NCBI GenBank assembly: GCA_963696085.1
Contig: CAVOIQ010000004.1
Location: forward strand, 48,291 to 112,290
Origin: an uncultured Actinomycetota bacterium
Lineage (GTDB): Bacteria; Actinomycetota; Actinomycetes; Actinomycetales; Microbacteriaceae
Reading direction: 5' to 3'
DNA length: 64,000 nt
Shown here: in pieces, positions 10,679-30,365 of the stretch
How positions within the stretch are numbered: position 1 is the first letter of the stretch
Layout of the letters: the number at the start of each line of letters is the position of its first letter
Translations under genes and position numbers: made by a program
Notes under the pieces: model-generated
Told to the model about the DNA's origin: nothing
The model's input: only the letters and a program-made list of their open reading frames with translations
Database searches by the model: none

Positions 10679-10694
10679 TACCTGATCGCATCAG

Positions 10695-10724: not shown

Positions 10725-10827
10725 GCGTTGTCGAGATGTGGTTTCGTCCGTCGCATGTGCGCAGTCGACGTCGGCAGCACCCTGCGCTGGCGACGGCGGA
10801 ACAGCAGGGCACGTGCCGGTGCCCAAC

Positions 10828-10869
10828 AAAGAGGAGGGGCGGATGCCGCAGCATCCGCCCCTCCTCTTT
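10828..10869. terminator. Terminator of the leftward liv operon
   Basis: Perfect 19-bp stem AAAGAGGAGGGGCGGATGC-CGCA-GCATCCGCCCCTCCTCTTT. Confidence 0.88.
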
Positions 10870-10902
10870 GTACGACGCCCTCAGGCGCGCTCAGTCCCTG
10901 AA

Positions 10903-12761: not shown

Positions 12762-13728
12762 AGGTCATCTCCCTCTTGTCGCCGAGGATGCCCTGCGGCC
12801 TGAAGATCACGAGCAGCATGAGTGCGACACCGACGAGGATGTAGCGCAACGTTCCCGCCTGAATCGACGTCATCGGCAGGATGCCCGCCGACGCGAGTTG
12901 GGGAAGAAGGTTGCCGAGCAGTGCCAGCACCACCCAGAAGATCACGGCGCCGAGGGTCGGACCCAAGACCGTCGCCGCACCGCCGAGGAGGAGGATCGTC
13001 CACAGGAAGAACGTGAGCGACGTGGTGTAGCTCGAGGGGACCACCGCCGACGGGAGCACGTAGACGATGCCACCCATCGCTCCGATGACGCCACCGACGA
13101 CGAGCGCCTGCATCTTGTACGCGAAGACGTTCTTGCCGAGCGAGCGCACGGCATCCTCGTCTTCACGGATGCCCTTGAGGACGCGTCCCCAGGGGCTGCG
13201 CATGAGCGACCAGACGAGCAGGATGGCGATCGCGAGCATCGCGAGGCCGAACACGCGAGTCCAGAGCACTGTTTCATTCGATTCCCACGGCCCGAAACCG
13301 TACTGACCGGGTGGGAAGGGGTTGGCCGCGCGGAAGCTCGCGTGGTAACCGCCGAGCCCGTCAGCCGAGTTGGTCACGTCGTCGAAGACCTGCGTCGTGA
13401 ACAGGAGCCTGACGATCTCCGCCGCCGCGATCGTGACGATGGCGAGGTAGTCCGCCCGCAGTCGGAGGGTCGGGATGCCGAGAATCAGCGCGAACACCGC
13501 CGCAGCAAGCAGCCCGAGAAGCATCGCGATCCACCACGGGATGCCGAGTGTCAGAACCCCGATCGCGTAGCCGTAGCCACCGAGTGCCATGAAGCCGGCC
13601 ATACCGAAGTTGAGCAGTCCGGTGTATCCGAAGTGCACCGCGAGGCCTGTCGCCGCGAGCGCGTAGGCGATCGTGACGGGGCTCAGGATATAACCGAGCG
13701 TGTTTCCAAGAATTGATCCCCAATCCAT
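12751..13728 (-). CDS. livM: ABC permease, LivM-like
   Basis: GYTGLLNFG, LRLRADYLAIVT, SPWGRVLKGIREDEDA, RPQGILG. Confidence 0.92.
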   Translation of the reverse strand: MDWGSILGNTLGYILSPVTIAYALAATGLAVHFGYTGLLNFGMAGFMALGGYGYAIGVLTLGIPWWIAMLLGLLAAAVFALILGIPTLRLRADYLAIVTIAAAEIVRLLFTTQVFDDVTNSADGLGGYHASFRAANPFPPGQYGFGPWESNETVLWTRVFGLAMLAIAILLVWSLMRSPWGRVLKGIREDEDAVRSLGKNVFAYKMQALVVGGVIGAMGGIVYVLPSAVVPSSYTTSLTFFLWTILLLGGAATVLGPTLGAVIFWVVLALLGNLLPQLASAGILPMTSIQAGTLRYILVGVALMLLVIFRPQGILGDKREMTFVK

Positions 13729-13733
13729 GGCCG

Positions 13734-15044
13734 CTACCCCAATCTTTCTTTACGACCGAGCAAGCCTTGAGGTCTCACGAGCAGAATCAGAATCAGAATC
13801 AGCAAGGCGGCCGCGTACTTGAGGTCGGACGGGATCCACAGCGTCGAGGTTTCAACGACGATGCCGACGATGAGCGAACCGAGCAAGGCGCCGAAGGCGG
13901 TGCCGAGACCGCCGAGCGTGATCGCGGCGAAGATGAGCAGCAGCATCTGCGTGCCCATGTCCCACTTGACGCCCGGCCGGAAGTAGGCCCAGAGGATACC
14001 GGAGAGACCGGCAAGCGCACCGGCGAGGATCCATACGATCCGCACGACGCGGTCGACGTTGATACCCGAGGCCGCGGCCAATTGCGGATTGTCCGAGATC
14101 GCGCGGGTGGCCTTGCCGATTCTGGTGCGCAAGAGGAAGTATGCGACGAACAGGATGACGACAATGCTGACGCCCATGCTGATGAGGTCGATATACGACA
14201 GCGAGATCGGTCCGAATTGGTACGGAGCAGGACTCGCGCCCGGCAGCTGGTAGGTCTTGCCGCCGATGAAGTACTGGAAGGTGTAGCGCAGCGCGAGGGA
14301 GAGGCCGATGCTGACGATCATCAGCTGCACGACCCCCAACCCTCTTCGTCGTAGAGGTCCCCACAGACCGCTATCCAGCGCGAGACCGAGGACCCCGCCC
14401 ATGGCTACCGCCAGGATCATGCCGAGCCAGAACGGGAGCGACCAGAACGACGTGAACACCAGGGCCGACACCGCACCCCAGGTGACCATCTCGCCGTGGG
14501 CGAAGTTCGACAAGCCGGTGGTTCCGTAGATGAGCGACGCGCCCATGGCCGCAAGTGCGAGGAGGAGTCCGAAGTTCAGTCCGTTGACCAGGCGCAGAAG
14601 GAGCTGATCGAAGAAGGACTGCGTCACGCGCTCGCCCGTTCCGAGGAAGAGGTTCACGATCTTCGTGTTGGTGAGCCCGAATTCGACCTCTTGAGAGGCG
14701 GAGGCGCCCTCCACGATCACTCCTTCGGGGAGCGTCGACTCATCGACGGTGAGCGTGTACGTGCCCTTCTCAGGGACGTACAGTCGCCACTTGCCTTCGG
14801 CATCCGTTGCGGTGGTGGCGGAGAAGCCGCCGCCCTCGATCTTCATCTCAACGCCTTCGAGCGGGACGTCGTCCTTCTCGATCACACCGGCAAAGTAGAA
14901 GTCGGTCTTCTCTTGATCGTCACCGGCCGCGGCAGACGCCGACCCGGGGGAGGCCATGAAGACCATGGCGGCTGCCAAGAGCGCACACATCAACGCCATC
15001 AGCCATGGCGAAATTCTTCGCGCGGGGGCAATCGTGGAACCCAC
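13734..15044 (-). CDS. livH: ABC permease, LivH-like, with N-terminal extracytoplasmic beta domain
   Basis: GTTGLSNFAHGE, TRIGKATRAISDN, RPQGLLG; N-terminal signal peptide plus ~100-aa beta-rich domain. Confidence 0.9.
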   Translation of the reverse strand: MGSTIAPARRISPWLMALMCALLAAAMVFMASPGSASAAAGDDQEKTDFYFAGVIEKDDVPLEGVEMKIEGGGFSATTATDAEGKWRLYVPEKGTYTLTVDESTLPEGVIVEGASASQEVEFGLTNTKIVNLFLGTGERVTQSFFDQLLLRLVNGLNFGLLLALAAMGASLIYGTTGLSNFAHGEMVTWGAVSALVFTSFWSLPFWLGMILAVAMGGVLGLALDSGLWGPLRRRGLGVVQLMIVSIGLSLALRYTFQYFIGGKTYQLPGASPAPYQFGPISLSYIDLISMGVSIVVILFVAYFLLRTRIGKATRAISDNPQLAAASGINVDRVVRIVWILAGALAGLSGILWAYFRPGVKWDMGTQMLLLIFAAITLGGLGTAFGALLGSLIVGIVVETSTLWIPSDLKYAAALLILILILLVRPQGLLGRKERLG

Positions 15045-15118: not shown

Positions 15119-16834
<1,716 letters not shown>

Positions 16835-16890: not shown

Positions 16891-18015
16891 TCAGGCGGGC
16901 AGGCGGAACGGGGCGGCCGCCCGGGCGGTGTCGTCGGTCGCGAGCCCGGCAAGCACCGCGCCCACCGCGGGAGTGAACTTGAAGCCGTGCCCGGAGAATC
17001 CGGCACCGACGACGATGCGGCCGCGGCGATCGAGCACGAAATCCTCGGTGGCTGTCGAGGTGTAGGTGCAGCTGATCGGCACAGCACTGTCGGCGTCGAG
17101 CCCCGGCATCCACTCTCCGACGTAGTCGCGCAGCAGGGCGGCGAGCTCCGGCACCGGACGGAAGGTGCGGGCGTCGGGGTTGACGACGGGTCCGACGAGA
17201 TGGAATCCCACCTTCACACCCTCGCCCGGAGTGGGCATCCCGTAGACGTTGCCGGGGAAGCGGTCACGCGGCAGCAGGTGGTTGAACGATGGCCACGCAG
17301 GCGTCCGATCGCCCGAGGTCGTGTCGAGCGGCGCGAAATGGGCCGGGCTCTCTTCCGTGACGGTCAGCGGAGGGAGTGCGAAGGAGGCGGGAAGGATGCC
17401 GCGCGTCCAGGCTCCGGCGGTGACGACCACCACGTCGGCGACGAAGTCCTGGCGTTCGCCGTGCCGCTCGACGGTGACGACCACGTCGTCGGCCCGCTCC
17501 TGGATGTCCACCACGCCCGCGCCGTAGTGCACCTCGGCGCCGAAGCCTCGTGCCCCGCGTTCGAGCGCTTCGAGCGCGGCCGCCGCGCGCACCACACCCG
17601 CGTCCGGGGTGAACAGGGCATCGCCGTCGAACCGCATGCCCCGCCACCGGCGCGCTGCTTCGTTCGACGACAGCACCTCGGCGCGCGCGCCGCGGGCGGT
17701 GAGCGCCGCGTGGACGCGGGCGATGGCGTCGTCATCGCCGTGCGTCACGAGCCCGTGCAGGCGCAGCAGCGGCTCGCCCGTCGTGCGTGACAGCTCGTCC
17801 CACTCGGCACGGGCGAGATCAAGCAGGTCCAGGTAGTGATCGGCGGAGTAGGCATTGTTGAAGTTGCGCGTCGCACCGTGCGATGCGCCACGCGTGTGGC
17901 CGCGCTCGAAGCGCTCGAATGCGACCACTCTGTGGCCGCGCCGCGCCAGCTGCCAGGTTGTGGCCAGTCCCATCGCGCCGGCGCCCACGACGATGTGCGA
18001 AACGCGCTCTGTCAT
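16891..18015 (-). CDS. Monomeric sarcosine oxidase / N-methyltryptophan oxidase (SolA)-family flavoprotein
   Basis: VGAGAMG, GASHGATR, SCTYT (position of the flavinylated Cys), GFSGHGFKF. Confidence 0.85.
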   Translation of the reverse strand: MTERVSHIVVGAGAMGLATTWQLARRGHRVVAFERFERGHTRGASHGATRNFNNAYSADHYLDLLDLARAEWDELSRTTGEPLLRLHGLVTHGDDDAIARVHAALTARGARAEVLSSNEAARRWRGMRFDGDALFTPDAGVVRAAAALEALERGARGFGAEVHYGAGVVDIQERADDVVVTVERHGERQDFVADVVVVTAGAWTRGILPASFALPPLTVTEESPAHFAPLDTTSGDRTPAWPSFNHLLPRDRFPGNVYGMPTPGEGVKVGFHLVGPVVNPDARTFRPVPELAALLRDYVGEWMPGLDADSAVPISCTYTSTATEDFVLDRRGRIVVGAGFSGHGFKFTPAVGAVLAGLATDDTARAAAPFRLPA

Positions 18016-19886
18016 ATTCTCGTTCCAATGGTGGGGATCGGTTCGGCGCGCGTGGACAGCGCGGCGCGCAGCGCTGCGCGGGCAGCGGCGTCGATCTCTC
18101 GCAGCACGGTCGAGTTCGTGTGGGGGACCGGCGCGATGATCGTGAAAACCCGGATGTCCTCATGTGGGACACCAACGGAGAACAGATCGGCTGCCGCCGT
18201 GCCGTCGCTCCCGACCACGGCGCCGTCTTCGGCGCGCACGTCCAGCGCATCCGACGCGGTTCCGTCGGGGAAGCGCCAGACGCGACCGATGCCGTCTTCG
18301 AGAAGTCGGCGAAGCAAGGGATCGGCGGTGCGCTTCACGGTGGGGGCGGGCAGCCACGCCTCGACGATCCGTTCGGCAGTGACGGTCTCGCCTGCCCGTG
18401 TCGCGACGGTGACACCGTCATCTCGCACCTCGACGGCGATCTGACCGCCCGCGAACCGGACGACACCCGCCTCGTGCGCGGCGAGGAGCTGGCGGGCGCG
18501 ACGCAGCGGCGGACCGCTGCCGAAGGACGCGGCCGTCGCCAGAAACGCGCGATAGGCAGGGAAGGACTCGGTCGTGAGACCACCGAAGCCGACGAGATCG
18601 ATCACCGCGGATCGAGCGGCCGCATACGAGTGCAGAGCGAGTTTGAGCGGACTTTCCATACCCCGTGCAGCCTCGTCGGCGTCCCGCCGCACGGCGGACG
18701 CGACATCCGCATCGGTCATGGATTCGCGCGAATGGAAGGGGTCCGCGGCGTCGACCAGCGACAGTCGGTCTGCGGGATCCGCGATGTGTATCGCGACCAG
18801 CGCCGCCACGGACTCGTCCGTCGTTCGAAGGGCATCGAGGAGTGCAGGTGCATCGCGCACCGCACCGGGTCGCACGCGCACGAGCGCCCGGTAGTAGTCG
18901 AACGCGGCGTCGCGCTCGATCAGCGGGAGCACGTCGCGGGCGAAGTCCACCGGGCGCCGCGATCGCAGCCGAGGCAGGGCCGCGCGCAGGATGCGCTGCT
19001 CGGGGAAGAACGGCGGTGCGCCGAAGTCGGGCTTCGCCCGGTAGGGGAGGCCGCGACGGGAGCCCGCGACCAGGAAGGGTTCCTCCCCGGACGGCTCGTA
19101 ACGGCACGAACCGTCGGCGAGATCGATGAAGCGGCCGCCGCGCTGCTCCGTCAGTTGGCTGAGCGTATCGAAGAACCCCATCCCCAGGCCGCGCACCGCG
19201 ACGATCTCGCCCGCCCGGATCGGCGACAGGTCCTGGTCGATCGGATTGCCGGCAGCGATGACCCGCGCATGCGGCGCGGGAGCCGCCGGGTCGAGCCAGC
19301 CGACCGCGAGCAGCACCGCATCCGTCGTCAGAGCGTTGCCATCGTCGAGCTCGACGCTCCAGCCGGCAGCGGCGCGCTCCAGCGCGATCGCGCGCGCACG
19401 ATGGACCCGCACCTCGACATGCGGCGGCGCCGACCGCACGATGTCTTCGAAGCACCACCTGAGGTAGTGGCCGTAGAGCAGTCGCGAGGGATTCGAGTGG
19501 TCCCGCGTCGCGACCGCTTCGGCGATCACCTCGGTCGGGGCGTCAGCACCGGCGACGGCCGGATCCGCGGCGACGAGGCGACACCACTGCGCCAGCGAGG
19601 GACCGGGGCGGATCGGACCTTCGCATTCGACGGTTCCGTCGGTGAACAGCGTCGACTGCGCCGCGACCGTGTTCATGATCAGAAAGGACGACTGCGCGGC
19701 CCGCCAGATGCGGCCGGACCCCGGCGGGTACGGATCGATGACATGCACGATGAGCTGCTGACGAGCATCGTCGCTGGCGCTGGCAAGGATGCGTTCGAGC
19801 GCCGAAGTACCTCGCACGCTGGCCCCGATGATCGTGACGGATGCCGGGGAGGCGCGGTCGTCACCTGTCAGCCGATCCGCTCGCAC
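18012..19886 (-). CDS. FAD/NAD(P)-binding oxidoreductase, CreE/FzmM-like (NAD_binding_9 family)
   Basis: IIGASVRGTSALERI, VIDPYPPGSGRIWR..QS..LIMNTVAAQ, GLGMGFFD, GSRRGLPY. GTG 19886 is chosen because CAGGAT sits 6 nt upstream; 624 aa. Confidence 0.82.
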   Translation of the reverse strand: MRADRLTGDDRASPASVTIIGASVRGTSALERILASASDDARQQLIVHVIDPYPPGSGRIWRAAQSSFLIMNTVAAQSTLFTDGTVECEGPIRPGPSLAQWCRLVAADPAVAGADAPTEVIAEAVATRDHSNPSRLLYGHYLRWCFEDIVRSAPPHVEVRVHRARAIALERAAAGWSVELDDGNALTTDAVLLAVGWLDPAAPAPHARVIAAGNPIDQDLSPIRAGEIVAVRGLGMGFFDTLSQLTEQRGGRFIDLADGSCRYEPSGEEPFLVAGSRRGLPYRAKPDFGAPPFFPEQRILRAALPRLRSRRPVDFARDVLPLIERDAAFDYYRALVRVRPGAVRDAPALLDALRTTDESVAALVAIHIADPADRLSLVDAADPFHSRESMTDADVASAVRRDADEAARGMESPLKLALHSYAAARSAVIDLVGFGGLTTESFPAYRAFLATAASFGSGPPLRRARQLLAAHEAGVVRFAGGQIAVEVRDDGVTVATRAGETVTAERIVEAWLPAPTVKRTADPLLRRLLEDGIGRVWRFPDGTASDALDVRAEDGAVVGSDGTAAADLFSVGVPHEDIRVFTIIAPVPHTNSTVLREIDAAARAALRAALSTRAEPIPTIGTRI

Positions 19887-19974
19887 CGGTCCATCCTGGC
19901 AGGGCGTCCCAGCCCTCTCGGCCCGTCCGGGCCGTTTGTGTCGGCGTGTGTCGGGGCGACTTCGTCGATCGAGT

Positions 19975-19990
19975 GAAACGTTTCTACGTT
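19975..19990. promoter_or_regulatory. Palindrome GAAACGTTTC abutting a -10-like TACGTT; LacI-type operator candidate
   Basis: Perfect 10-bp palindrome at 19975-19984 inside the divergent intergenic region; TACGTT at 19985-19990. Confidence 0.45.
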
Positions 19991-20067
19991 GGGGACTACG
20001 CCGCAGCGGTGAATCGCATCGCCGCGGCGTCTCACAGCCTCGCCATCCAATCCAGGAGCACACCGTC

Positions 20068-21219
20068 ATGCCTCATTTCCGTCGCGGAGCCGCCCTCGCC
20101 GGCGCCGCCGCCCTCGTGCTCGGCCTCACGGCCTGCAGCACCCCCGCCGCTCAGTCCGGCGACGCCGTCGCCACGGAGCCCGTGCGCATCGGCGTCGCGC
20201 TGCCGCAAACCGGTGACCAGGCCCAGTACGGGGAGTACTTCCAGCAGGGATTCGATCTCGCCCTCGACCAGCTCAACGACGCGGGTGGCATCGACGGCCG
20301 GCAGGTCGAGCTCGTATACGAAGACACCCAGGCCGATCCCGCGCAGGCGCCCGCGGTCGCGCAGAAGTTCGTCGACGACGAGTCGATCCTCGCCGTGCTC
20401 GGAGACTTCGGTTCGCCGGCGTCCGCCGCAGGCAGCCCCATCTATCAGGCCGCAGGGTTGGTGCAGTTCGCGTTCTGCGCGTCGGCCTCGACCGTGACCG
20501 ATCCGGGCGACTACGTGTTCGCGACGTGGGTCTCGCAGGAGTACGAAGCCCCCCGCCTGGCAGAGTTCGCCGCCGAGCAGGGCTCGACCGCCGCGGTCTT
20601 CTACCAGGACACTGACTGGGGTCAGGAGACCCACGGCTTCTTCTCCGGGGGCGCCGACAAGGCCGGACTCGACGAGGTGTACTCGACCGCGTACAACCCC
20701 GAGAGCACGGACTACCGCCCGCTGCTGCTGGCGGCCCAGGCCGAGAACCCCGAGGTCATTGTCCTCATCTCGTACGCGGCGGACGCTGCGCTCATCACGT
20801 CGCAGGCGCGTGAACTCGGCATCGATGTTCCGATCGTCGGCATCAGCTCGATCTACAACCAGCAGTTCATCGATCTCGCCGGCGATGCCGCCGAGGGCGT
20901 GCAGACGCTGAGCTACTTCACCCCGAAGAACCCCGACGAGGATGTGCAGCAGTTCATCGCGGACTTCGACGCCGAGTACGACGTCGAGACGCCGTCGGAC
21001 TTCGCCATCCGTGCCTACGACGCGCTCAACATCGTCGCAACGGCGGCTAACAGCACTGACGAGCTCACCCGCGCGAGCCTGCGCGATGCCCTGGCCACCG
21101 GCGAGGACTTCCCGACCATCCTCTACGGCCCGATCACCTTCACCGAGGATCGCCGCGTGGTGGACGCCGAGCAGTACCCGCTGGTGGTCAAAGACGGCGC
21201 ATTCGAGCTCGTCGAGTAG
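20068..21219 (+). CDS. Liv-type ABC substrate-binding lipoprotein
   Basis: SD AGGAG; lipobox GLTAC; IGVALPQTG, GGIDGRQVELVYED, AYDA. Confidence 0.9.
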   Translation: MPHFRRGAALAGAAALVLGLTACSTPAAQSGDAVATEPVRIGVALPQTGDQAQYGEYFQQGFDLALDQLNDAGGIDGRQVELVYEDTQADPAQAPAVAQKFVDDESILAVLGDFGSPASAAGSPIYQAAGLVQFAFCASASTVTDPGDYVFATWVSQEYEAPRLAEFAAEQGSTAAVFYQDTDWGQETHGFFSGGADKAGLDEVYSTAYNPESTDYRPLLLAAQAENPEVIVLISYAADAALITSQARELGIDVPIVGISSIYNQQFIDLAGDAAEGVQTLSYFTPKNPDEDVQQFIADFDAEYDVETPSDFAIRAYDALNIVATAANSTDELTRASLRDALATGEDFPTILYGPITFTEDRRVVDAEQYPLVVKDGAFELVE

Positions 21220-21294
21220 CGCCGCACTCACGACCGAACCCTGTCCGGGTGCCCGCTACGGGTACCCGGACATCGGTATGAAAGGGACCTTCGG

Positions 21295-23166
21295 GTGGAC
21301 ATACTCCTTGCAGGGATCGTCAGCGGCAGCACGTATGCGCTGCTCGCGATCGGCGTTTCGCTGATCTTCGGCGTATCCAACATCGTCAACTTCGCGGCGG
21401 GCTCGGTGTTCGCCGCAGGCGCGATGATGGGCTGGTTTCTGGCCGCAGTGCTGGCGTGGCCGCTGTGGGCGGTGCTGGGCGGGGTGGTCGCATTCACGAG
21501 CCTGCTCGGGTGGCTCATCTTCGTGGTCGCGGTGCGGCCGCTGCGGACGGCACCGGGCATCGCCGTGCTGCTGTCGACGTTTGCTGTCGGCATCATCCTC
21601 GACAACACCTCACAGCGGGTGTTCGGTGCTGAGACGCGTCGCTTTCCTGCGTTGCTCGAGCGCAGCAACTTCGAGCTGTTCGGGTTCCGCTTCGGCACCA
21701 TCGCGATCGTCATCATCGGTGTGAGTGTGGTGTGCGTCGTGGTGCTCGCTTGGGTGCTGGCGCGTACGCGCATCGGCCGCGCGATCCGCGCCACCTCGCA
21801 GGACCGTGACGCCGCAGCCCAGATGGGCATCCCGGTCGACCGCATCCAAGCAATCTCCTTCGTCATCGCCTCCGCGCTCGGTGGTGTCGCGGGAGTCCTC
21901 GTGGGCATGTACTTCTCGAATGTCGCGCCGTCCATGGGGTTCGCCGCAGGCGTGCAGGCGTTCGCCGCGGCGACCATCGGCGGGCTGGGCTCGTTGCCCG
22001 GGGCGATCGTCGGGGGTCTCATCCTCGGCGTGGCCGAGGCCTTCGGTGTGTCCCTCTGGGGTGATTCGGTGCGCCAGCTCATCACGTTCGGCGCACTCAT
22101 CCTGGTGCTGTGGGTCCGGCCGGGCGGCATCCTCGGCCGCGTTCCTGCCGTGGCGAGCGAGCCGATGACCGGCACGTTCTTCGGTGCGGGCACACCACTG
22201 CGCCTGAACCGGTGGCTCGCCTTCGGACTGCTGGGGGCGGGGCTGCTGGTGCCGGTCATCGCCAGCGACTACCTCCTGCGGACGGGGGCGCTGGTCTGGA
22301 TATACGCACTCTTCGCACTGTCCGTCACCCTCGCGGGGGGCTTCGCCGGCCAGATCGTGCTGGGGCAGGCCGGGGCGCTGGCGATCGGCGCGTACACCTC
22401 GGCGCTGCTGGTCACGCAGGCCGGCTGGGACTTCTGGGCGAGTTTCGTGGCCGCCGGACTCTGTGCCGCGATCGGGAGCGTATTGCTGACTGCTCCGACG
22501 TGGCGGCTCCGAGGGCACTACGTATCGATGGCGACGCTCGCCACCGGCGGGTTGATCGCCGCGCTCGCGCTCAACCTGCAGGGCATCACGAACGGCGCGC
22601 GCGGCATCTACGGCATCCCCCGGCCGACGCTTTTCGGCGTCCCCGTTTCGTCCGCCGCAGGGATGTACCTGCTCGCGTTCGCGGTGCTCGCCGGGGCCCT
22701 GGTCATCGTGTCGCGCCTCGGGTCCTCGCACCTCGGCCGCTCGTGGGCCGCGGTGCGCGAGGACGAAGTGGCTGCGGCATCGTCCGGCATCCACCCGGCG
22801 GCGTACAAGTCGCTGGTGTTCGGGCTCGGGTCGGCCATTGCCGGCTTCGCCGGGGCGCTGTACGCCGCCCAGGTCACCTATATCGAGCCGAGCCAGTTCG
22901 GCATATCGCTCTCGGTGCTGGCCGTGACGATCGCCATCCTCGGGGGCCTGCGCGCACCGATGGGCGCCGTCGTGGGTGCCGTCGTGCTGGTGGGCGTCCC
23001 CGAGTTCTTCCGCGCGTTCGCGGACTGGCGACTCCTGTTCTACGGTGTCCTGCTGCTGGTTCTGATCTTGTGGCGGCCGCAGGGGTTGTGGGCGCATTCC
23101 GACACGTTCGCACGGCTGTGGGGGCGCCTGACCCGCCGCCGAGTCAGTGAAGAGGTGGTCTCGTGA
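21295..23166 (+). CDS. Fused LivH-LivM ABC permease
   Basis: Two permease halves: IFGVSNIVNFA...TRIGRAIRA...RPGGILG, then GQIVLGQ...SHLGRSWAAVREDE...RPQGLW. Confidence 0.9.
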   Translation: MDILLAGIVSGSTYALLAIGVSLIFGVSNIVNFAAGSVFAAGAMMGWFLAAVLAWPLWAVLGGVVAFTSLLGWLIFVVAVRPLRTAPGIAVLLSTFAVGIILDNTSQRVFGAETRRFPALLERSNFELFGFRFGTIAIVIIGVSVVCVVVLAWVLARTRIGRAIRATSQDRDAAAQMGIPVDRIQAISFVIASALGGVAGVLVGMYFSNVAPSMGFAAGVQAFAAATIGGLGSLPGAIVGGLILGVAEAFGVSLWGDSVRQLITFGALILVLWVRPGGILGRVPAVASEPMTGTFFGAGTPLRLNRWLAFGLLGAGLLVPVIASDYLLRTGALVWIYALFALSVTLAGGFAGQIVLGQAGALAIGAYTSALLVTQAGWDFWASFVAAGLCAAIGSVLLTAPTWRLRGHYVSMATLATGGLIAALALNLQGITNGARGIYGIPRPTLFGVPVSSAAGMYLLAFAVLAGALVIVSRLGSSHLGRSWAAVREDEVAAASSGIHPAAYKSLVFGLGSAIAGFAGALYAAQVTYIEPSQFGISLSVLAVTIAILGGLRAPMGAVVGAVVLVGVPEFFRAFADWRLLFYGVLLLVLILWRPQGLWAHSDTFARLWGRLTRRRVSEEVVS

Positions 23167-24026
23167 CCGAGCCGACGACCAGGCCCCTACTGCGGGTCAC
23201 CGGCCTGACGAAACGCTTCGGCTCCTTGACGGTGGTCGACAATGTCTCGCTCGAGATCCAGCGCGGCGAGGTCGTGTCGATCATCGGCCCCAACGGCAGC
23301 GGCAAGACGACGACTCTCAACATCATCAGCGGGGTGCTGCGCGCGGCATCCGGATCCGTGGAGCTGGACGGCAGACGCATCACCGGCCGCAAGCCGCACG
23401 AGATCGCCAATCTCGGGCTCACTCGCACGTTCCAGAACGGCCGCGTGATCGGCAATCTCACGGTCGCCGAGAACGTCCTCGTCGGATTGGAGTCGGTGCA
23501 GACCATCGGGCGTCCGCTGTCGACGTTGCGCGGCATCCCGGGCATCCGCTGGCTCCCCCTTCTCGCCGAGACCGTGAGCGCGCTGCTTCCCGGACCTCGC
23601 CGCCGACGCCAGGATGCGGCAGACGCGGAGCGCGTGAGCGCGGAACTCGCGCGGTTCGGCGACCGCCTCGCGCCGCGCCGCGACCAGTACGCGTACTCGC
23701 TCTCGTACGCCAACCGTCGTCGCACCGAGATCGCGCGTGCTCTCGTGGCCTCGCCAAAGCTGCTCGTGCTCGACGAGCCGACGGCCGGAATGAACCAGAC
23801 CGAGACCGCCGAGGTGCTCCAACAGCTGCTCGAGCTCAAGAAGGCGGGCCTCACGATGCTGCTCGTCGAGCACAAGCTCGATCTGGTCATGACCGTGTCG
23901 GATCGTGTGCTCGTTCTCGACGACGGGCGGCTGATCGCACAGGGCCGGCCCGACGACGTCCGCCGGGATCCGCGCGTCATCGAGGCCTACCTCGGCAAAG
24001 CCTTCGCGGAAGGATCCGACGCATGA
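23163..24026 (+). CDS. ABC ATP-binding protein, LivG-like
   Basis: GPNGSGKTT, TRTFQ, LSYANRRRTEIARAL, LDEPTAGM, VEHK. Confidence 0.92.
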   Translation: MTEPTTRPLLRVTGLTKRFGSLTVVDNVSLEIQRGEVVSIIGPNGSGKTTTLNIISGVLRAASGSVELDGRRITGRKPHEIANLGLTRTFQNGRVIGNLTVAENVLVGLESVQTIGRPLSTLRGIPGIRWLPLLAETVSALLPGPRRRRQDAADAERVSAELARFGDRLAPRRDQYAYSLSYANRRRTEIARALVASPKLLVLDEPTAGMNQTETAEVLQQLLELKKAGLTMLLVEHKLDLVMTVSDRVLVLDDGRLIAQGRPDDVRRDPRVIEAYLGKAFAEGSDA

Positions 24027-24847
24027 CCGCGCTGCTCGCATTCGAGGACGTCACGGTGAGCTACGGCGTGAGCCCCGCTCTCGAGAACGTGACGCTCCAG
24101 CTCGAGGAAGGGCACATCACCTGCCTGCTCGGCGGCAACGCCTCGGGGAAGTCCACCACCATGAAGACGATTCTCGGGCTGATTCGCCCGGTGTCGGGCC
24201 GCGTGATCTTCGACGGTCAGGACATCACCGGTTGGGGCACACCCCGCCGCATCCGTGCGGGCATCGCGTCGGTCCCGGAAGCGAGGCGCGTGTTCGCCGA
24301 CATGACCGTCGAAGACAACCTGCTCGCCGGCGCGTATGTGCGCCTCGACCGGGGCATCCGGCGCACGCTGGCTGAGGTATACGAGTTCTTCCCGCGGCTC
24401 GCCGAGCGCAGGGTGCAGCGAGCGGGCACGTTGTCGGGCGGAGAGCAGCAGATGCTCGCGTTCGGCCGAGCGCTGATGAGCCGCCCGCGACTGATCTGCA
24501 TGGACGAGCCCACAATGGGGCTGGCGCCGATCGTCGTCGAGCGCGTCCTCGGGCACATCGCCACGATCAACCGCGACCTCGGCGTGAGCGTTTTCATGGT
24601 GGAGCAGAACGCCGAGCTGGCGTTGAGCGTGGCGGACAGCGGCTACGTGCTGCGCACCGGCCGAATCGCCGTGACCGGCACGGCCGCTGAGTTGCTCGCC
24701 CACCCGGGCGTGCGCGAGGCGTACCTCGGCCGGGCGATCGATCCGGCTGCTGCGCCGCTCGAGGTCGCGGGGCGATCAGATCCCGGCACGGGCACCCCCG
24801 CGCGCGCTGACACGACGACCGACGCCACAGAGGACGGACGAGCATGA
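24023..24847 (+). CDS. ABC ATP-binding protein, LivF-like
   Basis: ATG 24023 overlaps the previous stop; GGNASGKST, LSGGEQQMLAFGRAL, MDEPTMGLAP. Confidence 0.92.
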   Translation: MTALLAFEDVTVSYGVSPALENVTLQLEEGHITCLLGGNASGKSTTMKTILGLIRPVSGRVIFDGQDITGWGTPRRIRAGIASVPEARRVFADMTVEDNLLAGAYVRLDRGIRRTLAEVYEFFPRLAERRVQRAGTLSGGEQQMLAFGRALMSRPRLICMDEPTMGLAPIVVERVLGHIATINRDLGVSVFMVEQNAELALSVADSGYVLRTGRIAVTGTAAELLAHPGVREAYLGRAIDPAAAPLEVAGRSDPGTGTPARADTTTDATEDGRA

Positions 24848-25347
24848 CCGATGTACTCCTGACGATCGCGGAGGTCGTCTCGGACGCCCCGCGCGACCAT
24901 CGACCCGCGGTTCGCGAAGCGGCACAGGCGAGCTATCACGCACTGTTCGACGTCCCTGCCGACGACCCGGCACCCGGTGTCGACCGGTCGCTGCGGCATC
25001 TCATCGCGGCCCGCACTGCCCGGCTGGAGGGCGACGGTCCGGCCGTCGAGTTCTATCTCGAGTCCGTCGATGCCCGCGATGAGCAGTCGCTTGTGGAGCA
25101 GGGACCGGATGGACCGGCGGGAGTGCGGGCGCCGCGGCGCACGCGCGCCGCGCTGCGCTACGTCGACCTTCTCACCACACGTCCTGCTGGGGCGACGGTC
25201 GACGATCTGAACGGGCTGCTCGCCGCAGGCTGGGAGCCCGCCGAGATCGTCGTGATCGGACAGATCGTGGGTTTGGTGACCTATCAGGTGCGCGTCGCGC
25301 AAGGGCTGCGCGTACTGGATGATCTGTTCGGGGAGGACGACCGTTGA
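24844..25347 (+). CDS. CMD-domain protein (Avi_7170-like)
   Basis: R..VREAAQASYHALF and AGW...EIVVIGQIVGLVTYQVRV resemble this family; no CxxC; paired with an AhpD-like gene. Confidence 0.7.
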   Translation: MTDVLLTIAEVVSDAPRDHRPAVREAAQASYHALFDVPADDPAPGVDRSLRHLIAARTARLEGDGPAVEFYLESVDARDEQSLVEQGPDGPAGVRAPRRTRAALRYVDLLTTRPAGATVDDLNGLLAAGWEPAEIVVIGQIVGLVTYQVRVAQGLRVLDDLFGEDDR

Positions 25348-25973
25348 GCACGCGATTCACCACCGAGGAACGCGCTTGGCACGCGTGGATCGAGCCGGTC
25401 GGTCCTGACACCGGCTCACCAGCGCAGATCGCGGCGTACGAGTCGAGCGTGTGGCCCGACTCGCCGTATTTCCGCCTGCTGGCGTGGCATCCCGGCGCAC
25501 TGGCGGCCAGGACCGCGCTGGACCGTGCGATCTTCCTCGGGCGACCGGGGCTGCCGCGCGGCGAACGCGAACTGGCGGCGACCGTCGCTTCACGCCTCAA
25601 CGGTTGCGAACTGTGCACCAGCGTGCACTCTCGGTTCACCGTCACCTTCACCAAGCAGGAGGACGCCGTCCAACGCCTCCTCGAAGAGGGCGTCGATGCC
25701 CTCTTCGAGCCGCGCTGGCGGGCGATCGTCGATGCTGCCGCGGCGCTCAGCGCCTCGCCGCCGCGGTTCGCCGCTCACCACGCACGGGCACTGGTGGACG
25801 TCGGGTTCTCTCGTGCCGACATCCAGGACATCGTGGAATCGACGGCGTTCTTCGCCTGGGCGAACCGCCTGATGCTCAGTCTTGGGGAGCCCGCCGCACC
25901 CGACGCTGCGGACGGGGAGGCGATCGCCAACCAGCGCGCCGCCGACGCCCTCGCCGCGGAGACTGCGGCGTAG
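25344..25973 (+). CDS. Alkylhydroperoxidase AhpD-domain protein (Avi_7169-like)
   Basis: SPYFRLLA, ERELAATVASRLNGCELCTSVH (CxxC..H), FFAWANRLMLSLGEP. Confidence 0.85.
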   Translation: MSTRFTTEERAWHAWIEPVGPDTGSPAQIAAYESSVWPDSPYFRLLAWHPGALAARTALDRAIFLGRPGLPRGERELAATVASRLNGCELCTSVHSRFTVTFTKQEDAVQRLLEEGVDALFEPRWRAIVDAAAALSASPPRFAAHHARALVDVGFSRADIQDIVESTAFFAWANRLMLSLGEPAAPDAADGEAIANQRAADALAAETAA

Positions 25974-25987: not shown

Positions 25988-26032
25988 CACCCACCTGCCT
26001 TCCCGCCACCATCGCGGGAAGGCAGGCGGGTG
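25988..26032. terminator. Hairpin between convergent ahpD-like and MFS genes
   Basis: 19-bp stem CACCCACCTGCCTTCCCGC/GCGGGAAGGCAGGCGGGTG with one mismatch that is a G.U wobble on the minus strand. Confidence 0.75.
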
Positions 26033-26035: not shown

Positions 26036-27556
26036 TCACGCCTCGGCGAGCGCGGGCTCGCGGGTGACAGATGCCTCGGCCGCGGCATCCGTCTCCACGG
26101 TGTTCGCGGGAGCGGAGCGTCCGACGGGCAGCCACAGCGCGACGACGGCGGCGGCCAGCAGCACTGCGGCCCCGGTCAGCACCGCGGGGCGCGCGGCGTC
26201 GACGTAAAGGTCGGGCCGCAGCTCGCCCCCGGCGCTCACGAAGATCGCTGTCATCACGGCCGTTCCCAGAGCAATGCCGATCTCACGCGCGGTGGAGTTG
26301 ACCCCGGACGCCTTGGCGTGGTCGAGCACTCCGAGTGTCGCCAGCAGTGCGGTCGCCGACGGCGCGAAGACAAGCCCCATGCCGATGCCGGCGAGGATGA
26401 ATGGCGCCACCATCTGTGCGTAGGCGAGGTCGGCTGAGAGCGTGAGGCCGATCCACCCCAGTGCGATGCCCTGCAGCACGAGGCCCGACAGCAGCAGGAT
26501 TCGCGTGCCGACCCGAGGTGCGATGATGCCGGCGATCGGCGCGACGAACATCGGCGCGAGGGTCCAGGGCGTTGTCTGCACCGCGGCTTCGAGGGGCGTC
26601 GACCCCTGCACGACCTGCAGGTACTGGATCAGGATGAACACCGACCCAAAGGTTCCGAAGCTGAACGCGAAGCCGACGATGTTCGTCAGCGAGAATGACC
26701 GGTCGCGGAACAGCCGCAGCGGCACGAGTGGCGCCTTCGTGCGGGTCTGCCAGCCCAGGAAGGCCAGCAGCAGCACGATCCCGGCCGCGATCTCGGCGAT
26801 GACACCCGCCGACGACCAGCCGTCATCGTTGCCACGGACGATCGCATGGACGAGAGCGAGCACGCCGACGGCCGCGAGCAGTGCTCCGAAGACGTCGATC
26901 CGGGCGCGCTCGCCGAAGTCGTTGTTCAAGGCGAACAGTGCGAGGGGGATGGCGATGAGCGCGACCGGGATGTTGATCCAGAAGATGGACTGCCAGTTCA
27001 AGCCCTCCATGATCGCGCCGCCGACGAGTGGCCCGACCGCGACGCCGAGACCGGCGACGCCGCCCCAGATGCCGATTGCGAGTGGTCGGCGCGCCGGCGC
27101 AACGCCGCCGGCGATGAGGGCGAGCGACAGCGGCATGACTCCGGCGCCGCCGAAGCCCTGCAGCGCGCGGGCGGCGATGAGCTGCCCCGGGTCAGTACTG
27201 AGGGCCGCGAGGGCCGATCCGATGCCGAACAGCGCGATGCCGATCACGAAGACGGTGCGGCGGCCGAAGCGATCGCCGAGTGCCGACGCGACAAGGATCG
27301 CGCTCGCGAATGCCAGCGTGTACGCGTTCATGAACCATTGCAGCTCTTCGACGCTGGCCCCGAGCTCGCTGTGCAGCACCGGGAGCGCGTTGGTCATGAC
27401 GAGGTTGTCGAGCGTGGCCATGAACATCGGGACGGATGCCGCGGCAACGACGAGTCCGAAGGACCGCGTGCGTCCGGGGCTCCCGCCGGCACGGCTTCGC
27501 ACGGATGCCGGATTCGTCGCGTCAGCCATCGGCGCGGGGGTGATGACGTCGCTCAT
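26036..27556 (-). CDS. DHA2 (14-TM) MFS efflux transporter
   Basis: FMATLDNLVM, GDRFGRR, GPLVGG, WQSIFWINIP; divergent from tetR. Confidence 0.92.
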   Translation of the reverse strand: MSDVITPAPMADATNPASVRSRAGGSPGRTRSFGLVVAAASVPMFMATLDNLVMTNALPVLHSELGASVEELQWFMNAYTLAFASAILVASALGDRFGRRTVFVIGIALFGIGSALAALSTDPGQLIAARALQGFGGAGVMPLSLALIAGGVAPARRPLAIGIWGGVAGLGVAVGPLVGGAIMEGLNWQSIFWINIPVALIAIPLALFALNNDFGERARIDVFGALLAAVGVLALVHAIVRGNDDGWSSAGVIAEIAAGIVLLLAFLGWQTRTKAPLVPLRLFRDRSFSLTNIVGFAFSFGTFGSVFILIQYLQVVQGSTPLEAAVQTTPWTLAPMFVAPIAGIIAPRVGTRILLLSGLVLQGIALGWIGLTLSADLAYAQMVAPFILAGIGMGLVFAPSATALLATLGVLDHAKASGVNSTAREIGIALGTAVMTAIFVSAGGELRPDLYVDAARPAVLTGAAVLLAAAVVALWLPVGRSAPANTVETDAAAEASVTREPALAEA

Positions 27557-27628: not shown

Positions 27629-28276
27629 ATGTCAAGCGTGAAAACAAATGAGGGAACGACGACGACGTCAAAGCCCGCGCCGGCCATCCGGATGAGCTCC
27701 GAAGATCGCCGCGAGCAGATCATCGCCGCAGCCCTGGCGGTGTTCGGCGCCAAGGGGTACGAAGGCACCACGACGGACGAGGTCGCCCGCACCGCCGGGA
27801 TCAGCCAGCCGTACGTGGTCCGGCTGTTCGGCACGAAAGAGAACCTTTTCCTCGCGGCCATGCAGTCCGCGCTCGACGAGCTGATGCACACGTTCCGCGC
27901 GGAACTCGCCGACGAGGCATCCGATCGTCCCGTCGCCAAGCGCATCGGGGAGGCGTACGTCGAACTGCTCAGCACGCGGGGACTGCACCAGACCCTCTCG
28001 CACGCGTGGCTGCTCGGCGGGCACCCGGTGATCGGGCCGGCCGCGCGGCGCGGTTTCGCGCAGGTCTGGCAATTCTTCCGCGATGAGGCGGGCCTGGATG
28101 CTGACGAGGCCCGGATGTTCCTTGCCGAAGGCATGCTGATCAACGTCATGATCGGCATGCGCCTCGTCGACGACTACGGCTCGGATCCGCGGATCACCGA
28201 GCTCTTCCGCACGTGCTTCCCGACCGAGCTGCCGCACATCCTCGACATCGCGCCCAAGGGCAACGAGCCCTGGTAG
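27629..28276 (+). CDS. TetR-family regulator
   Basis: RREQIIAAALAVF..KGYEGTTTDEVARTAGISQPYVVRLFGTKENLF. Confidence 0.95.
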   Translation: MSSVKTNEGTTTTSKPAPAIRMSSEDRREQIIAAALAVFGAKGYEGTTTDEVARTAGISQPYVVRLFGTKENLFLAAMQSALDELMHTFRAELADEASDRPVAKRIGEAYVELLSTRGLHQTLSHAWLLGGHPVIGPAARRGFAQVWQFFRDEAGLDADEARMFLAEGMLINVMIGMRLVDDYGSDPRITELFRTCFPTELPHILDIAPKGNEPW

Positions 28277-28349: not shown

Positions 28350-29474
28350 GTGAGCATGGAGATCGAGATCGGCCGCGCCAAGCGCGCGCGTCGGGCATAC
28401 GCGTTCGATGACATCGCGGTCGTGCCTTCGCGGCGCACCCGCAACCCCGAAGACGTGTCGACGGTGTGGACGATCGACGCGTTCTCGTTCGGCATCCCGG
28501 TGCTGGGCGCCCCGATGGACTCGGTCATGAGCCCGCAGACGGCGATCATGCTCGGACAGCTCGGGGGCCTCGGAGTCCTCGACCTCGAGGGTGTCTGGAC
28601 GCGCTACGACGACCCGGAGCCGCTCCTCGCCGAGATCGCGGGACTGCCCGACGCCGAGGCGACAGAGCGCATGCAGGAGCTGTATGCCGAGCCGATCAAA
28701 CCTGAACTCGTCCGCGATCGCCTCGCGCAGATCCGCGATGCCGGTGTCACGGTCGCCGGGTCCCTCACCCCACAGCGGACGCAGGAGCTGTACGAAACCG
28801 TCGTCGCCGCGGGCGTCGACTTGTTCGTGATCCGCGGCACGACGGTCTCGGCCGAGCACGTCTCGAGCGTCGCCGAACCCCTCAACCTCAAGAAGTTCAT
28901 CTACGACCTCGACGTTCCCGTCCTCGTCGGAGGAGCGGCGACGTACACCGCCGCGCTCCACCTGATGCGCACGGGCGCCGCCGGCGTCCTCGTCGGATTC
29001 GGCGGGGGAGCAGCTTCCACGACGCGCGCCACCCTCGGGGTGCACGCTCCGATGGCCACCGCACTCGCGGACGTCGCCGGCGCACGCCGCGACTATCTCG
29101 ACGAGTCGGGCGGACGCTACGTGCACGTCATCGCCGACGGCGGAGTGGGCACCTCGGGCGACATCGTCAAGGCACTGGCCATGGGAGCGGATGCCGTCAT
29201 GCTGGGCGTTGCGCTCGCTCGCGCGACCGATGCCCCGGGCCGCGGATTCCACTGGGGACCCGAAGCACACCACCCCCGGCTGCCGCGCGGACGTCGCCTG
29301 AAGGTCGAGCAGACCACGAACCTCGAGTCGGTGCTCTACGGCCCGGCGCCCGTCGCAGACGGCACGGCGAACCTCATCGGGGCTTTGCGGAAGTCGATGG
29401 CCACGACCGGATACTCCGACCTCAAGGAGTTCCAGCGCGTAGAGGTCGTCGTCGCGCCGTACACCGCCGGATGA
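28350..29474 (+). CDS. guaB3: GuaB3-family IMP dehydrogenase-related protein
   Basis: IEIGRAKRARRAYAFDDIAVVPSRRTR, APMDSV, VHVIADGG, MATTGYSDLKEFQ. Confidence 0.92.
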   Translation: MSMEIEIGRAKRARRAYAFDDIAVVPSRRTRNPEDVSTVWTIDAFSFGIPVLGAPMDSVMSPQTAIMLGQLGGLGVLDLEGVWTRYDDPEPLLAEIAGLPDAEATERMQELYAEPIKPELVRDRLAQIRDAGVTVAGSLTPQRTQELYETVVAAGVDLFVIRGTTVSAEHVSSVAEPLNLKKFIYDLDVPVLVGGAATYTAALHLMRTGAAGVLVGFGGGAASTTRATLGVHAPMATALADVAGARRDYLDESGGRYVHVIADGGVGTSGDIVKALAMGADAVMLGVALARATDAPGRGFHWGPEAHHPRLPRGRRLKVEQTTNLESVLYGPAPVADGTANLIGALRKSMATTGYSDLKEFQRVEVVVAPYTAG

Positions 29475-30307
29475 CAGACTCCGGTCCGACCGCAACAGGC
29501 CCTACCCCCGAGCCCGCGCAGGTCTTTCCGCCGACGCTGCGCGAAGTGCTTCTGCGCCCCTGGTGGCTGGGAATGCTCGCGTTTGCACTCGTCGTGGCGG
29601 CAGTGTTCGCGTGGCTCGGTCAGTGGCAGCTCGGGCGTGCGGTCGAATCCGGCCCGGTCGAGCCCGGCCAGACCGAGATCGTCCAGCCCATCGCCGACGT
29701 CGTCGCACCGGGTGAATACCTCTCGGGTCCGCTCGGCGGGCAGCAGGTCGAGGCCGCCGGGGGCTTCATGGCAGACGACTTCCTTGTCGTGTCGTCTCGG
29801 TACAACAACGACGTGGAGGGGTACTGGGTGACCGGGCAGTTCCGCATCGACGGTACAGCTGAACCCACGTCGGTTGCGGTCGCCGTCGGATGGACGGACG
29901 ATCGAGAAGAGGCAGACGCTGCGGCATCCGCCCTCAATTCGGATCCTCCCCAGAATCTCGAGGTCTCCGGCCGGCTGATCGCCGACGAAGGGCCGGCCCT
30001 TCCTCCACGAGGAGCAGAGCCGGATGAGATGACCCGGATGTCGCCCGCAGCGCTCCTCAGCCGCTGGCACGACATCGCAGAGCTCAACGTCTACCGTCCC
30101 TATCTCGCCTCGACGGAACCGCTCGGAGACCTCACCGCCATCGACTCGCCCGCCCCCGACGAGGGCTCTAGCGTCAACTGGCTGAACATCTTCTACGCCA
30201 TCGAGTGGGCGGTCTTCGCCGGCTTCGCGTTCTACATGTGGTACCGACTGGGCAAAGACGCGTGGGAGAAAGAGGTCGAGGAACTCGAGGACGGCGAATC
30301 CGCCTAA
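29471..30307 (+). CDS. SURF1-family membrane protein
   Basis: N-terminal TM ending LGQWQLGR; C-terminal NWLNIFYAIEWAVFAGF. Confidence 0.85.
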   Translation: MTDSGPTATGPTPEPAQVFPPTLREVLLRPWWLGMLAFALVVAAVFAWLGQWQLGRAVESGPVEPGQTEIVQPIADVVAPGEYLSGPLGGQQVEAAGGFMADDFLVVSSRYNNDVEGYWVTGQFRIDGTAEPTSVAVAVGWTDDREEADAAASALNSDPPQNLEVSGRLIADEGPALPPRGAEPDEMTRMSPAALLSRWHDIAELNVYRPYLASTEPLGDLTAIDSPAPDEGSSVNWLNIFYAIEWAVFAGFAFYMWYRLGKDAWEKEVEELEDGESA

Positions 30308-30365
30308 CCCTCACAACCGGATGCCGGGGGAGGCTCGCTCTCGCCCCACGGTTAGAATGGGGATC

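Follow-up and report, generated by a model that had tools for sequence, protein, structure and literature searches.

A conserved eight-gene unit combining a CreE-like flavin monooxygenase, a Liv-type importer and an AhpD-like protein pair in a rhizosphere Microbacterium, with a predicted role in the salvage of a modified amino-acid-like nutrient

We analysed a 64-kb stretch of DNA (hereafter the window; GenBank assembly GCA_963696085.1, contig CAVOIQ010000004.1, positions 48,291 to 112,290) from a 3.16-Mb rhizosphere genome, assigned to Microbacterium by its closest homologues. Between guaB (15332-16834) and guaB3 (28350-29474), it harbours two divergent operons totalling eight genes. The leftward operon codes for a class B flavin monooxygenase (FMO) of the CreE/FzmM family (18012-19886, minus strand; 624 residues; PF13454, E=1e-36) and for an FAD amine oxidase of the monomeric sarcosine oxidase (MSOX) family (DAO/MSOX-like; 16891-18015, minus strand; 374 residues; PF01266, E=9e-49). 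The rightward operon, on the plus strand, starts with the gene of a lipoprotein substrate-binding protein (SBP) of the Liv/HAAT type (20068-21219; Peripla_BP_6, E=2e-65), whose signal peptide ends in LTAC. It continues with those of a fused LivH-LivM-type permease (21295-23166; 623 residues, two BPD_transp_2 domains, the LivH and LivM models matching one half each), a LivG-like ATP-binding cassette (ABC) ATPase (23163-24026; ABC_tran and BCA_ABC_TP_C) and a LivF-like one (24023-24847; ABC_tran; NF008626 at 258 bits, below the cut-off). The last two genes encode CMD1 (24844-25347), a Cys-free, Avi_7170-like protein of the CMD fold, and CMD2 (25344-25973; PF02627), an Avi_7169-like, AhpD-like CxxC protein. 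The FMO and MSOX genes overlap by 4 bp, and so do the last five rightward genes at each of their four junctions. A hairpin with 19-nt, 95% complementary arms and a 7-nt loop (inverted repeat I12, 25988-26032) lies between the convergent genes of CMD2 and of a major facilitator superfamily (MFS) protein and is likely the terminator of the rightward operon.

An earlier interpretation of this DNA, made from its letters without database searches (the sequence-only reading), had described the same eight genes; our open reading frame and profile analyses retrieved all of them with the same families, coordinates and overlaps, and the guaB, guaB3, MFS and TetR genes were also as it had placed them. 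The start of the FMO gene is the GTG at 19886, as indicated by the alignment of orthologues and by the stored gene call (P0001, 624 residues); its open frame extends further, to position 20069.

FMO relatives were scanned in one genome per prokaryotic species, yielding 80 loci whose 10-kb flanks were searched with every window protein. The same eight-gene set was found in 10 other species-representative genomes of Microbacteriaceae, a recurrence that puts the arrangement far beyond chance. The co-occurrence of these genes in 10 other species of three genera thus supports the proposal of the sequence-only reading that the two operons form one conserved unit. The genomes with this set, hereafter group 1, are those of Microbacterium allomyrinae, M. 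lacus, M. telephonicum, M. album, a Microbacterium metagenome-assembled genome, Microterricola pindariensis and five Leucobacter (FMOs 42-66% identical), and each locus codes for the FMO, the MSOX-like oxidase, the Liv-type SBP, the fused permease, the two ATPases, CMD1 and CMD2. In Microterricola, the eight genes are co-directional and overlapping and therefore constitute one operon. In Leucobacter gxy201, the genes of the FMO, the DAO-type oxidase and a short-chain dehydrogenase/reductase (SDR) diverge from the ABC and CMD genes.

More distant relatives fall into two other groups. In group 2 (FMO 34-39% identical), an FMO-SDR pair diverges from a Liv-type importer and a CMD pair. Group 3 comprises loci of Leucobacter, Corynebacterium, Rothia, some Microbacterium and Micromonospora, where the FMO, usually accompanied by an SDR, and in two Leucobacter genomes by an MSOX-like gene too, diverges from the CMD pair and a peptide-type (SBP_bac_5) importer. 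Among the 54 loci with full flanks, the aspartate-type clade described below being excluded, a CMD/AhpD gene is present in 40, an importer SBP of the Liv or peptide/Dpp type in 41, both in 38, and an SDR or oxidase gene in 37. CMD/AhpD, importer, SDR and oxidase genes are all missing from the six aspartate-type or Salinispora loci. On the FMO tree, the importer type switches several times within the sister clade of group 1, and therefore the constant core of these clusters consists of the FMO, the CMD pair and an importer.

The FMO of the window aligns over its full length (residues 13-608, E=2.6e-86) with the L-aspartate N-hydroxylase of Streptomyces sp. V2 (PDB 8CP2). In the latter, Trp51 and Asn62 are located at the flavin, L-aspartate is held in an entry chamber by Arg13, Arg276, Asn413, Arg416 and Arg577, and a sulfate ion is held by Arg266, Arg409, Arg412, Asn413 and Arg416 (PMC10404684). 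The window FMO keeps the catalytic Trp51 and Asn62 together with Arg13 and Arg412, as well as Arg593 and Arg597, and harbours the changes R266K, R409A, N413S, R416I, V571F and R577V, with Arg276 in a gap. Four of the five L-aspartate contacts are thus lost, Arg13 alone being kept, and in the neighbouring sulfate site Arg409 is replaced as well. The complete aspartate signature is present in five Streptomyces loci of our 81-sequence FMO alignment, whose assignment as aspartate-type is by residue signature alone; Pfam searches of the neighbours of these loci recognized no lyase domain in the frames chosen. The 75 sequences of the sister clade, which include every importer-linked FMO, have no Arg at the positions of Arg409, Arg416 and Arg577, and the Arg266 position is a Lys in all but two of them. 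Long, fully supported branches divide the importer-linked FMOs from the Streptomyces FMOs with the aspartate signature, and group 1 itself is a clade with 98% SH-aLRT support. Group 1 has the hydrophobic residues F581, I/V429 and V/I587, and groups 2 and 3 have mostly D581 and M587, often with K426.

The window enzyme and the L-aspartate N-hydroxylases (8CP2/8CP5, CreE and FzmM) thus have in common their fold, their length and a class B FAD/NADPH architecture. However, the former belongs to another clade with a substituted arginine cluster, and profile searches identified no nitrosuccinate lyase of the CreD/FzmL type among the cluster genes of the window. Its genetic context, an importer and redox proteins, also differs from the biosynthetic clusters of CreE and FzmM. 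Because the arginine cluster for aspartate is lost, we predict that the window FMO is CreE-like in fold and not a nitrosuccinate synthase; the sequence-only reading had called it a CreE-like flavoprotein, which is correct as to the family and goes no further than the fold. The enzyme may still bind one carboxylate, the site for the second one being replaced, in group 1 by a hydrophobic pocket.

The second flavoenzyme is homologous to MSOX structures (1EL5 and 7EXS, E values from 1e-43 to 5e-45). It keeps Cys315 for covalent FAD attachment, Lys265, His269, Tyr317, the carboxylate-binding Lys348, Arg49 and His45, and the first four of these residues are conserved in the window protein and its 14 orthologues. 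Its catalytic and flavinylation residues are thus intact. The family matches the initial annotation as a SolA/MSOX-like protein. It shares with MSOX and SolA the DAO fold, the flavin-bound Cys, the catalytic Lys, His and Tyr residues and Lys348, but differs from them at two positions: Met245 is an Asn in 15 of 15 sequences, and Arg52, the carboxylate clamp in MSOX structures, is an Asn in 14 and a Ser in the remaining one (Microterricola). The scores are also below the equivalog cut-offs for SolA (NF008425, 224.6 versus 257 bits) and soxA_mon (TIGR01377, 217.8 versus 479.65 bits). The protein appears to be an active amine oxidase with its own specificity and, given the two Asn substitutions and the low scores, its substrate is probably neither sarcosine nor N-methyltryptophan.

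Orthologues of this oxidase are also encoded alone and divergently from guaB3 in three Microbacterium species (loci L115, L116 and L117 of genomes G003, G004 and G015, respectively). They are 59-62% identical to the window protein and carry the same substituted residues. No monooxygenase, importer or CMD genes are present at the guaB3 site of these three genomes, and in G003 and G015 the oxidase gene adjoins that of an ABC-F-type double ATPase. The lone copies nest within the cluster-linked Microbacterium clade, with 99% support for a sister relationship between, for example, the G015 and M. telephonicum copies.

The importer has all the components of a Liv-type HAAT system, namely a Peripla_BP_6 SBP, a BPD_transp_2 permease and LivG/LivF ATPases with the BCA C-terminal motif, and all of them score below the LivJ, LivH, LivM, LivG and LivF equivalog cut-offs. 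The best solved relative of the SBP is 3HUT. Its pocket positions, as defined by LivJ and Atu2422, are identical or nearly so across the 11 group-1 sequences (the window and 10 loci). The families, the aromatic pocket residues and the Ser/Thr positions that bind the ligand backbone are common to this system, E. coli LivJHMGF and Agrobacterium Atu2422. In contrast with the latter two, the window permease is fused, and the acidic residue for the alpha-ammonium group of the ligand (Glu226 in LivJ, Asp in Atu2422) is replaced by Ser in all 11 group-1 SBPs; in group 2, the same position is a Gly in nine of 10 SBPs and a Ser in the one of locus L039. Since the ammonium-binding acidic residue is missing, the pocket hints that the ligand is probably not a plain alpha-amino acid.

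A second Liv-type system, canonical and unfused, is encoded to the left of guaB (9415-15044). Its SBP gene (9415-10320, plus strand) resumes in another frame (10307-10678, plus strand), so that a frameshift or a pseudogene is possible; the ATPase genes (10903-11739 and 11736-12761) and the permease genes (12751-13728 and 13734-15044) are on the minus strand.

The two CMD-fold proteins are related to a pair of orphan families. CMD1, devoid of Cys residues, matches TIGR04029 with 90.8 bits (cut-off 100.75), and CMD2 matches TIGR04030 with 201.6 bits (cut-off 233.15), and it passes the cut-off of TIGR01926, a broader model for a peroxidase-related AhpD-like subfamily (142.8 versus 81.8 bits). Thus, of the profiles that the sequence-only reading had suggested for verification, PF13454 was matched and the two TIGRFAM cut-offs were not reached, although the CMD homologues of groups 2 and 3 do pass them. 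The C-E-L-C-x3-H motif of CMD2 aligns with the CxxCxxxH motif of 3C1L and 2PRR, two 'peroxidase-related' structural-genomics proteins. In Corynebacterium, the homologues of CMD1 and CMD2 are fused into proteins of 395-411 residues that pass both cut-offs, which argues that the two proteins act together; CMD1 is presumed to be a partner subunit of CMD2.

The pair is also encoded directly beside a TRAP transporter (DctPQM) in Frigidibacter (L125) and directly after a luciferase-like monooxygenase in a metagenomic contig (L126), both from other phyla, and therefore it travels with different importers and different flavin oxygenases. The latter case agrees with the link between Avi-type pairs and luciferase-like monooxygenases given in the sequence-only reading. 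That reading also regarded the lack of a luciferase-like enzyme in the window as a peculiarity, which it is not, as the PF13454 FMO is the common actinobacterial partner of the pair, together with Liv- or peptide-type importers. The usual TIGR04029/TIGR04030 neighbourhood and the window have in common a Cys-free CMD protein with a CxxC AhpD-like one, a transporter and a flavin monooxygenase; the window differs by its single-component class B oxygenase, its Liv-type importer and a pair that scores below the cut-offs. Literature searches for TIGR04029, TIGR04030, Avi_7169, Avi_7170 and PF13454 returned nothing, those for CreE/FzmM retrieved no description of the importer-linked clade, and, in line with the sequence-only reading, we found no match to a characterized pathway.

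The Corynebacterium loci suggest a link between the module and sulfur metabolism. In C. callunae (L076), the gene order is MFS, fused CMD, duplicated ATPase, two permeases, SBP, then divergently FMO, DedA, SDR, TetR and MetB, which equals C. glutamicum cg2673-cg2687 gene for gene; in the published list for the latter, cg2674 is ahpD and cg2679 a 'hypothetical protein' (supplement of PMC11266056). Our C. glutamicum control genome matches PF13454, TIGR04029 and TIGR04030. Through this synteny with C. callunae, the core shared by the window and cg2674-cg2679 can be defined as a PF13454 FMO divergent from an ABC operon that ends in Avi_7170/7169-type CMD domains. In Corynebacterium, unlike in the window, the importer is of the SBP_bac_5 type (Dpp-type ABC, cg2675-78), the CMD proteins are fused, an SDR gene is present, an MSOX-like one is missing, and the FMO is ~32-37% identical to that of the window, with a D581/K426 pocket. 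The cg2674 product (NCgl2349) is AhpD2, which reportedly uses its CxxC dithiol to regenerate thiol peroxidases, Lpd/SucB/NADH being the electron source (Su et al. 2019, cited by PMC10460364), and reportedly raises H2O2 tolerance (PMC12179340). The cg2674-78 genes are listed as predicted McbR targets, and at pH 6 they are induced together with the methionine/cysteine regulon (PMC2807442).

When the McbR consensus TAGAC-N6-GTCTA (PMC2723105) was searched for with a tolerance of one mismatch, 11 of 13 Corynebacterium/Rothia loci had a box in the 250 nt upstream of the FMO gene, against a background of eight matches in 224 kb, several of them upstream of metB. As these species are related, the nominal P value makes the enrichment look stronger than it is, but the arms of the box are clearly conserved, with variable spacers. 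In Corynebacterium loci L046, L054, L062, L065, L069, L072 and L076, a metB gene (cystathionine gamma-synthase family) is found a few kb or less from the module, and extra McbR boxes occur upstream of metB, for example at position 15557 of L076.

At the same threshold, no McbR box was found in the window or in the divergent promoter of any Microbacteriaceae locus scanned, the sole match (L041, 14328) being ~4 kb from the promoter. The 181-bp divergent promoter region of the window (19887-20067) contains the perfect 10-bp palindrome GAAACGTTTC (19975-19984). The orthologous promoters of L004, L001 and Leucobacter have other AT-rich palindromes, CATTCGAATG and ATTCGAAT, with a ATGTTACACAT-like one in Leucobacter, at ~60-150 nt upstream of the SBP start. 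These palindromes are candidate operators of some regulator. Rfam detected no riboswitch, either at gathering thresholds in the whole window or in permissive mode in the intergenic region; the only match, to PhotoRC-I, was below threshold.

Taken together, these data lead us to propose, with a probability of roughly 55%, that the eight genes constitute one functional unit by which a neutral, modified nutrient resembling an amino acid is taken up and oxidatively processed. This compound, probably not a plain alpha-amino acid, would enter via the lipoprotein SBP and the Liv-type ABC transporter. With NADPH and O2, the FMO would then oxygenate a heteroatom of the monocarboxylic, hydrophobic substrate, either N, by family precedent, or S, possibly in iterative fashion as in other members of the family. 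The MSOX-like enzyme would act on a secondary or cyclic amine, oxidizing the adjacent C-N bond with release of H2O2; in the sister clusters, an SDR accompanies this oxidase or replaces it. We envision the CMD1/CMD2 hetero-oligomer as a CxxC dithiol reductase, recharged via Lpd/SucB by analogy with C. glutamicum AhpD2, that would either reduce the oxidized product (a sulfenate or similar) or feed the peroxidases clearing the peroxide generated by the flavoenzymes. The physiological role would be nutrient salvage. The sequence-only reading had also predicted catabolism or detoxification rather than biosynthesis, and the combination of uptake, oxidation and thiol redox indeed fits a catabolic or scavenging role better than a biosynthetic one.

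Several points weigh against this proposal. All characterized members of the FMO family are biosynthetic N-hydroxylases, with no S-oxygenase or catabolic enzyme among them. The sulfur link comes from relatives whose FMOs are ~35% identical, have D581/K426 in place of F581 and work with another importer type, and the window itself has no McbR box. Given its TRAP and luciferase-like contexts, the CMD pair could be a generic antioxidant accessory. Our interpretation of the SBP pocket stems from sequence alignment only, and the lone MSOX-like gene of three Microbacterium species may have a use of its own.

As for the nature of the substrate, an organosulfur amino acid (a thioether, N-substituted or cyclic) is our tentative preference, at slightly less than even odds. 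It is favoured because the Corynebacterium module belongs to a sulfur regulon with McbR operators, because a dedicated thiol reductase is present and because importers, flavin monooxygenases and redoxins generally occur together in sulfur-salvage operons. A purely N-alkylated or N-modified amino acid appears less probable, and other compounds account for the remaining odds. One may speculate that a sulfur amino acid that is cyclic or N-substituted would fit both the nitrogen- and the sulfur-related evidence. In Bacillus subtilis, the salvage of S-methylcysteine and S-(2-succino)cysteine similarly involves an ABC importer, one or several S-oxygenating flavin monooxygenases, thiol reduction of a sulfenate and expression under sulfur limitation. 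Its working logic resembles that of the window unit, but the B. subtilis operons use two-component luciferase-like enzymes and N-acetylation/deacetylation and are not known to include a CMD/AhpD pair or a homologue of the window FMO.

We weighed four other explanations. In the first, the unit would serve nitrogen-directed catabolism without any sulfur chemistry: an N-alkyl (e.g. N-methyl) or cyclic imino acid bearing a hydrophobic side chain would be N-oxygenated by the FMO and dealkylated by the oxidase, with the CMD pair merely clearing the peroxide of both flavoenzymes. The characterized FMO relatives are indeed amino-acid N-hydroxylases only (PMC10404684; PMC7347517), the partner enzyme is an intact amine oxidase of the MSOX family, the residue for binding a free alpha-ammonium is missing from the SBP, and AhpD2 backs peroxidases and H2O2 tolerance. 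However, the FMO, the CMD pair and the importer are conserved together also where there is no oxidase, the Corynebacterium module lies behind McbR boxes of the sulfur regulon, and a two-protein thiol reductase in every cluster seems excessive for peroxide clean-up. We therefore consider this explanation possible but rather unlikely.

Alternatively, the genes might share no substrate at all, an ordinary branched-chain importer being encoded next to a general antioxidant AhpD pair and to unrelated leftward flavoenzymes. Such a view is consistent with the existence of MSOX-like genes alone in some genomes, with the other contexts of the CMD pair and with the frequency of Liv systems in these bacteria, a canonical one being located just left of guaB. 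It is difficult to reconcile with the presence of the eight-gene set in three genera, as a single operon in Microterricola, with the association of the FMO clade with both an importer and a CMD pair in 38 of 54 loci, the importer having been exchanged several times around a constant core, or with an SBP pocket unlike that of LivJ, and we deem it improbable.

Even a little less credible is a function in biosynthesis or signalling, whereby an imported precursor would be converted to an N-oxidized product (an oxime, a hydroxamate or a nitro compound) that is kept or exported, for example by an MFS pump. The family precedent is biosynthetic (PMC7347517), and genes for a DHA2 efflux MFS protein and a TetR regulator adjoin the cluster in the window, L002 and L083. 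Nevertheless, orthologous loci L003 and L004 lack this MFS/TetR pair, the cluster has no ligase, nonribosomal peptide synthetase or tailoring genes, SBP-dependent ABC systems import, and McbR control in Corynebacterium points to nutrient metabolism.

Finally, an enzyme of the aspartate-nitrosuccinate pathway that, like CreE and FzmM, would supply secondary metabolism with nitrite or 3-nitropropionate is highly improbable, and we rejected it: despite the homology to 8CP2 and the conserved catalytic residues, the aspartate site that the Streptomyces homologues of our alignment keep in full is lost, the FMO belongs to a separate, long-branched clade, profile searches identified neither a CreD/FzmL-type lyase nor any biosynthetic gene in the cluster, and the neighbours are an importer and redox proteins.

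The eight genes of the window are thus a real and conserved unit, an uncommon version, with a Liv-type importer and a coupled MSOX-like oxidase, of a module widespread among actinobacteria. The sequence-only reading proved largely correct, apart from the specificity of the FMO, the rarity of the architecture and the island. The CreE/FzmM family has been known so far only from nitrite-generating steps of natural-product biosynthesis. The sister clade described here, much larger and without the aspartate site, occurs in Microbacteriaceae, Corynebacterium, Propionibacteriaceae, Rothia and Micromonospora and is tied to importers and an AhpD-like pair. A broader hypothesis, which we put forward as doubtful for now, is that this whole actinobacterial clade of nitrosuccinate-synthase-like FMOs is non-biosynthetic and performs the oxygenation in an as yet undescribed pathway that salvages modified, probably organosulfur, amino acids or peptides. 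Iterative heteroatom oxygenation would be followed by reduction of the oxidized product by the dedicated CMD/AhpD heteromer, and the window variant would handle a rhizosphere sulfur amino acid that is hydrophobic and either N-substituted or cyclic. The McbR operators give a predicted role in sulfur metabolism to cg2679 and the cg2674-78 operon of the tractable C. glutamicum, and the clusters place the orphan families TIGR04029 and TIGR04030 in a functional context. Once worked out, the chemistry could reveal a new salvage route for modified amino acids in soil and on skin, as well as a new substrate class for class B monooxygenases.

The unit is rare and accessory in Microbacterium: none of 120 species sampled has a group-1 orthologue, and only five Microbacterium carriers were found in the species-wide scan. 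Group-2 or group-3 paralogues (35-44% identical) are present in 26 of the 120 species. Two of the group-1 orthologues come from M. lacus SDZm4 (L003) and Microbacterium sp. C448 (P0026), which we take to be sulfonamide degraders; their presence among the carriers probably reflects the choice of sequenced strains.

In four genomes (the window, L002, L003 and L004), the unit is located beside guaB, and guaB3 follows it in the window, L003 and L004, the L002 locus ending before guaB3. In 17 Microbacterium relatives, guaB and guaB3 are directly adjacent in one case and 0.7-1.4 kb apart in four, the others having MFS/TetR or other cargo between them; in other genera the two genes are often adjacent. 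In the window, the MFS gene (26036-27556, minus strand; DHA2 efflux) and the TetR gene (27629-28276) separate the cluster from guaB3. This pair also adjoins the cluster in L002 and in the group-2 locus L083, and because it is absent from L003 and L004 we placed it outside the unit. On the other side of guaB3, a conserved core order is found in the window (28350-32449), with guaB3 followed by a SURF1-like gene (29471-30307) and guaA (30869-32449), and variable cargo is confined to the guaB side of guaB3.

The sequence-only reading had viewed the cluster as an accessory island. Its accessory nature is borne out, but a fresh insertion is not, given the variable cargo at this site, the partial losses, and the lack of mobility genes, tRNA or repeats. 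Indeed, repeat searches and the gene content of the window revealed no flanking direct repeats and no mobility genes. ARAGORN detected no tRNA or tmRNA in the 64 kb, and a tRNA-like element noted at 43712-43831 in the earlier reading was recognized by neither ARAGORN nor Rfam. The G+C content of the cluster is 69.5%, versus a genome mean of 66.6%, which corresponds to the 98th percentile of 9-kb windows; since that of guaB3 is likewise 69.5%, this deviation is too weak to call a foreign origin. The nesting of the lone oxidase copies among the cluster-linked ones of Microbacterium is better explained by a long-standing presence followed by partial loss than by a recent insertion. In eight rhizosphere metagenome runs from two studies, one of which may have yielded the assembly, DNA nearly identical to the cluster (16891-25973; 47-73% of sampled words) was also detected.

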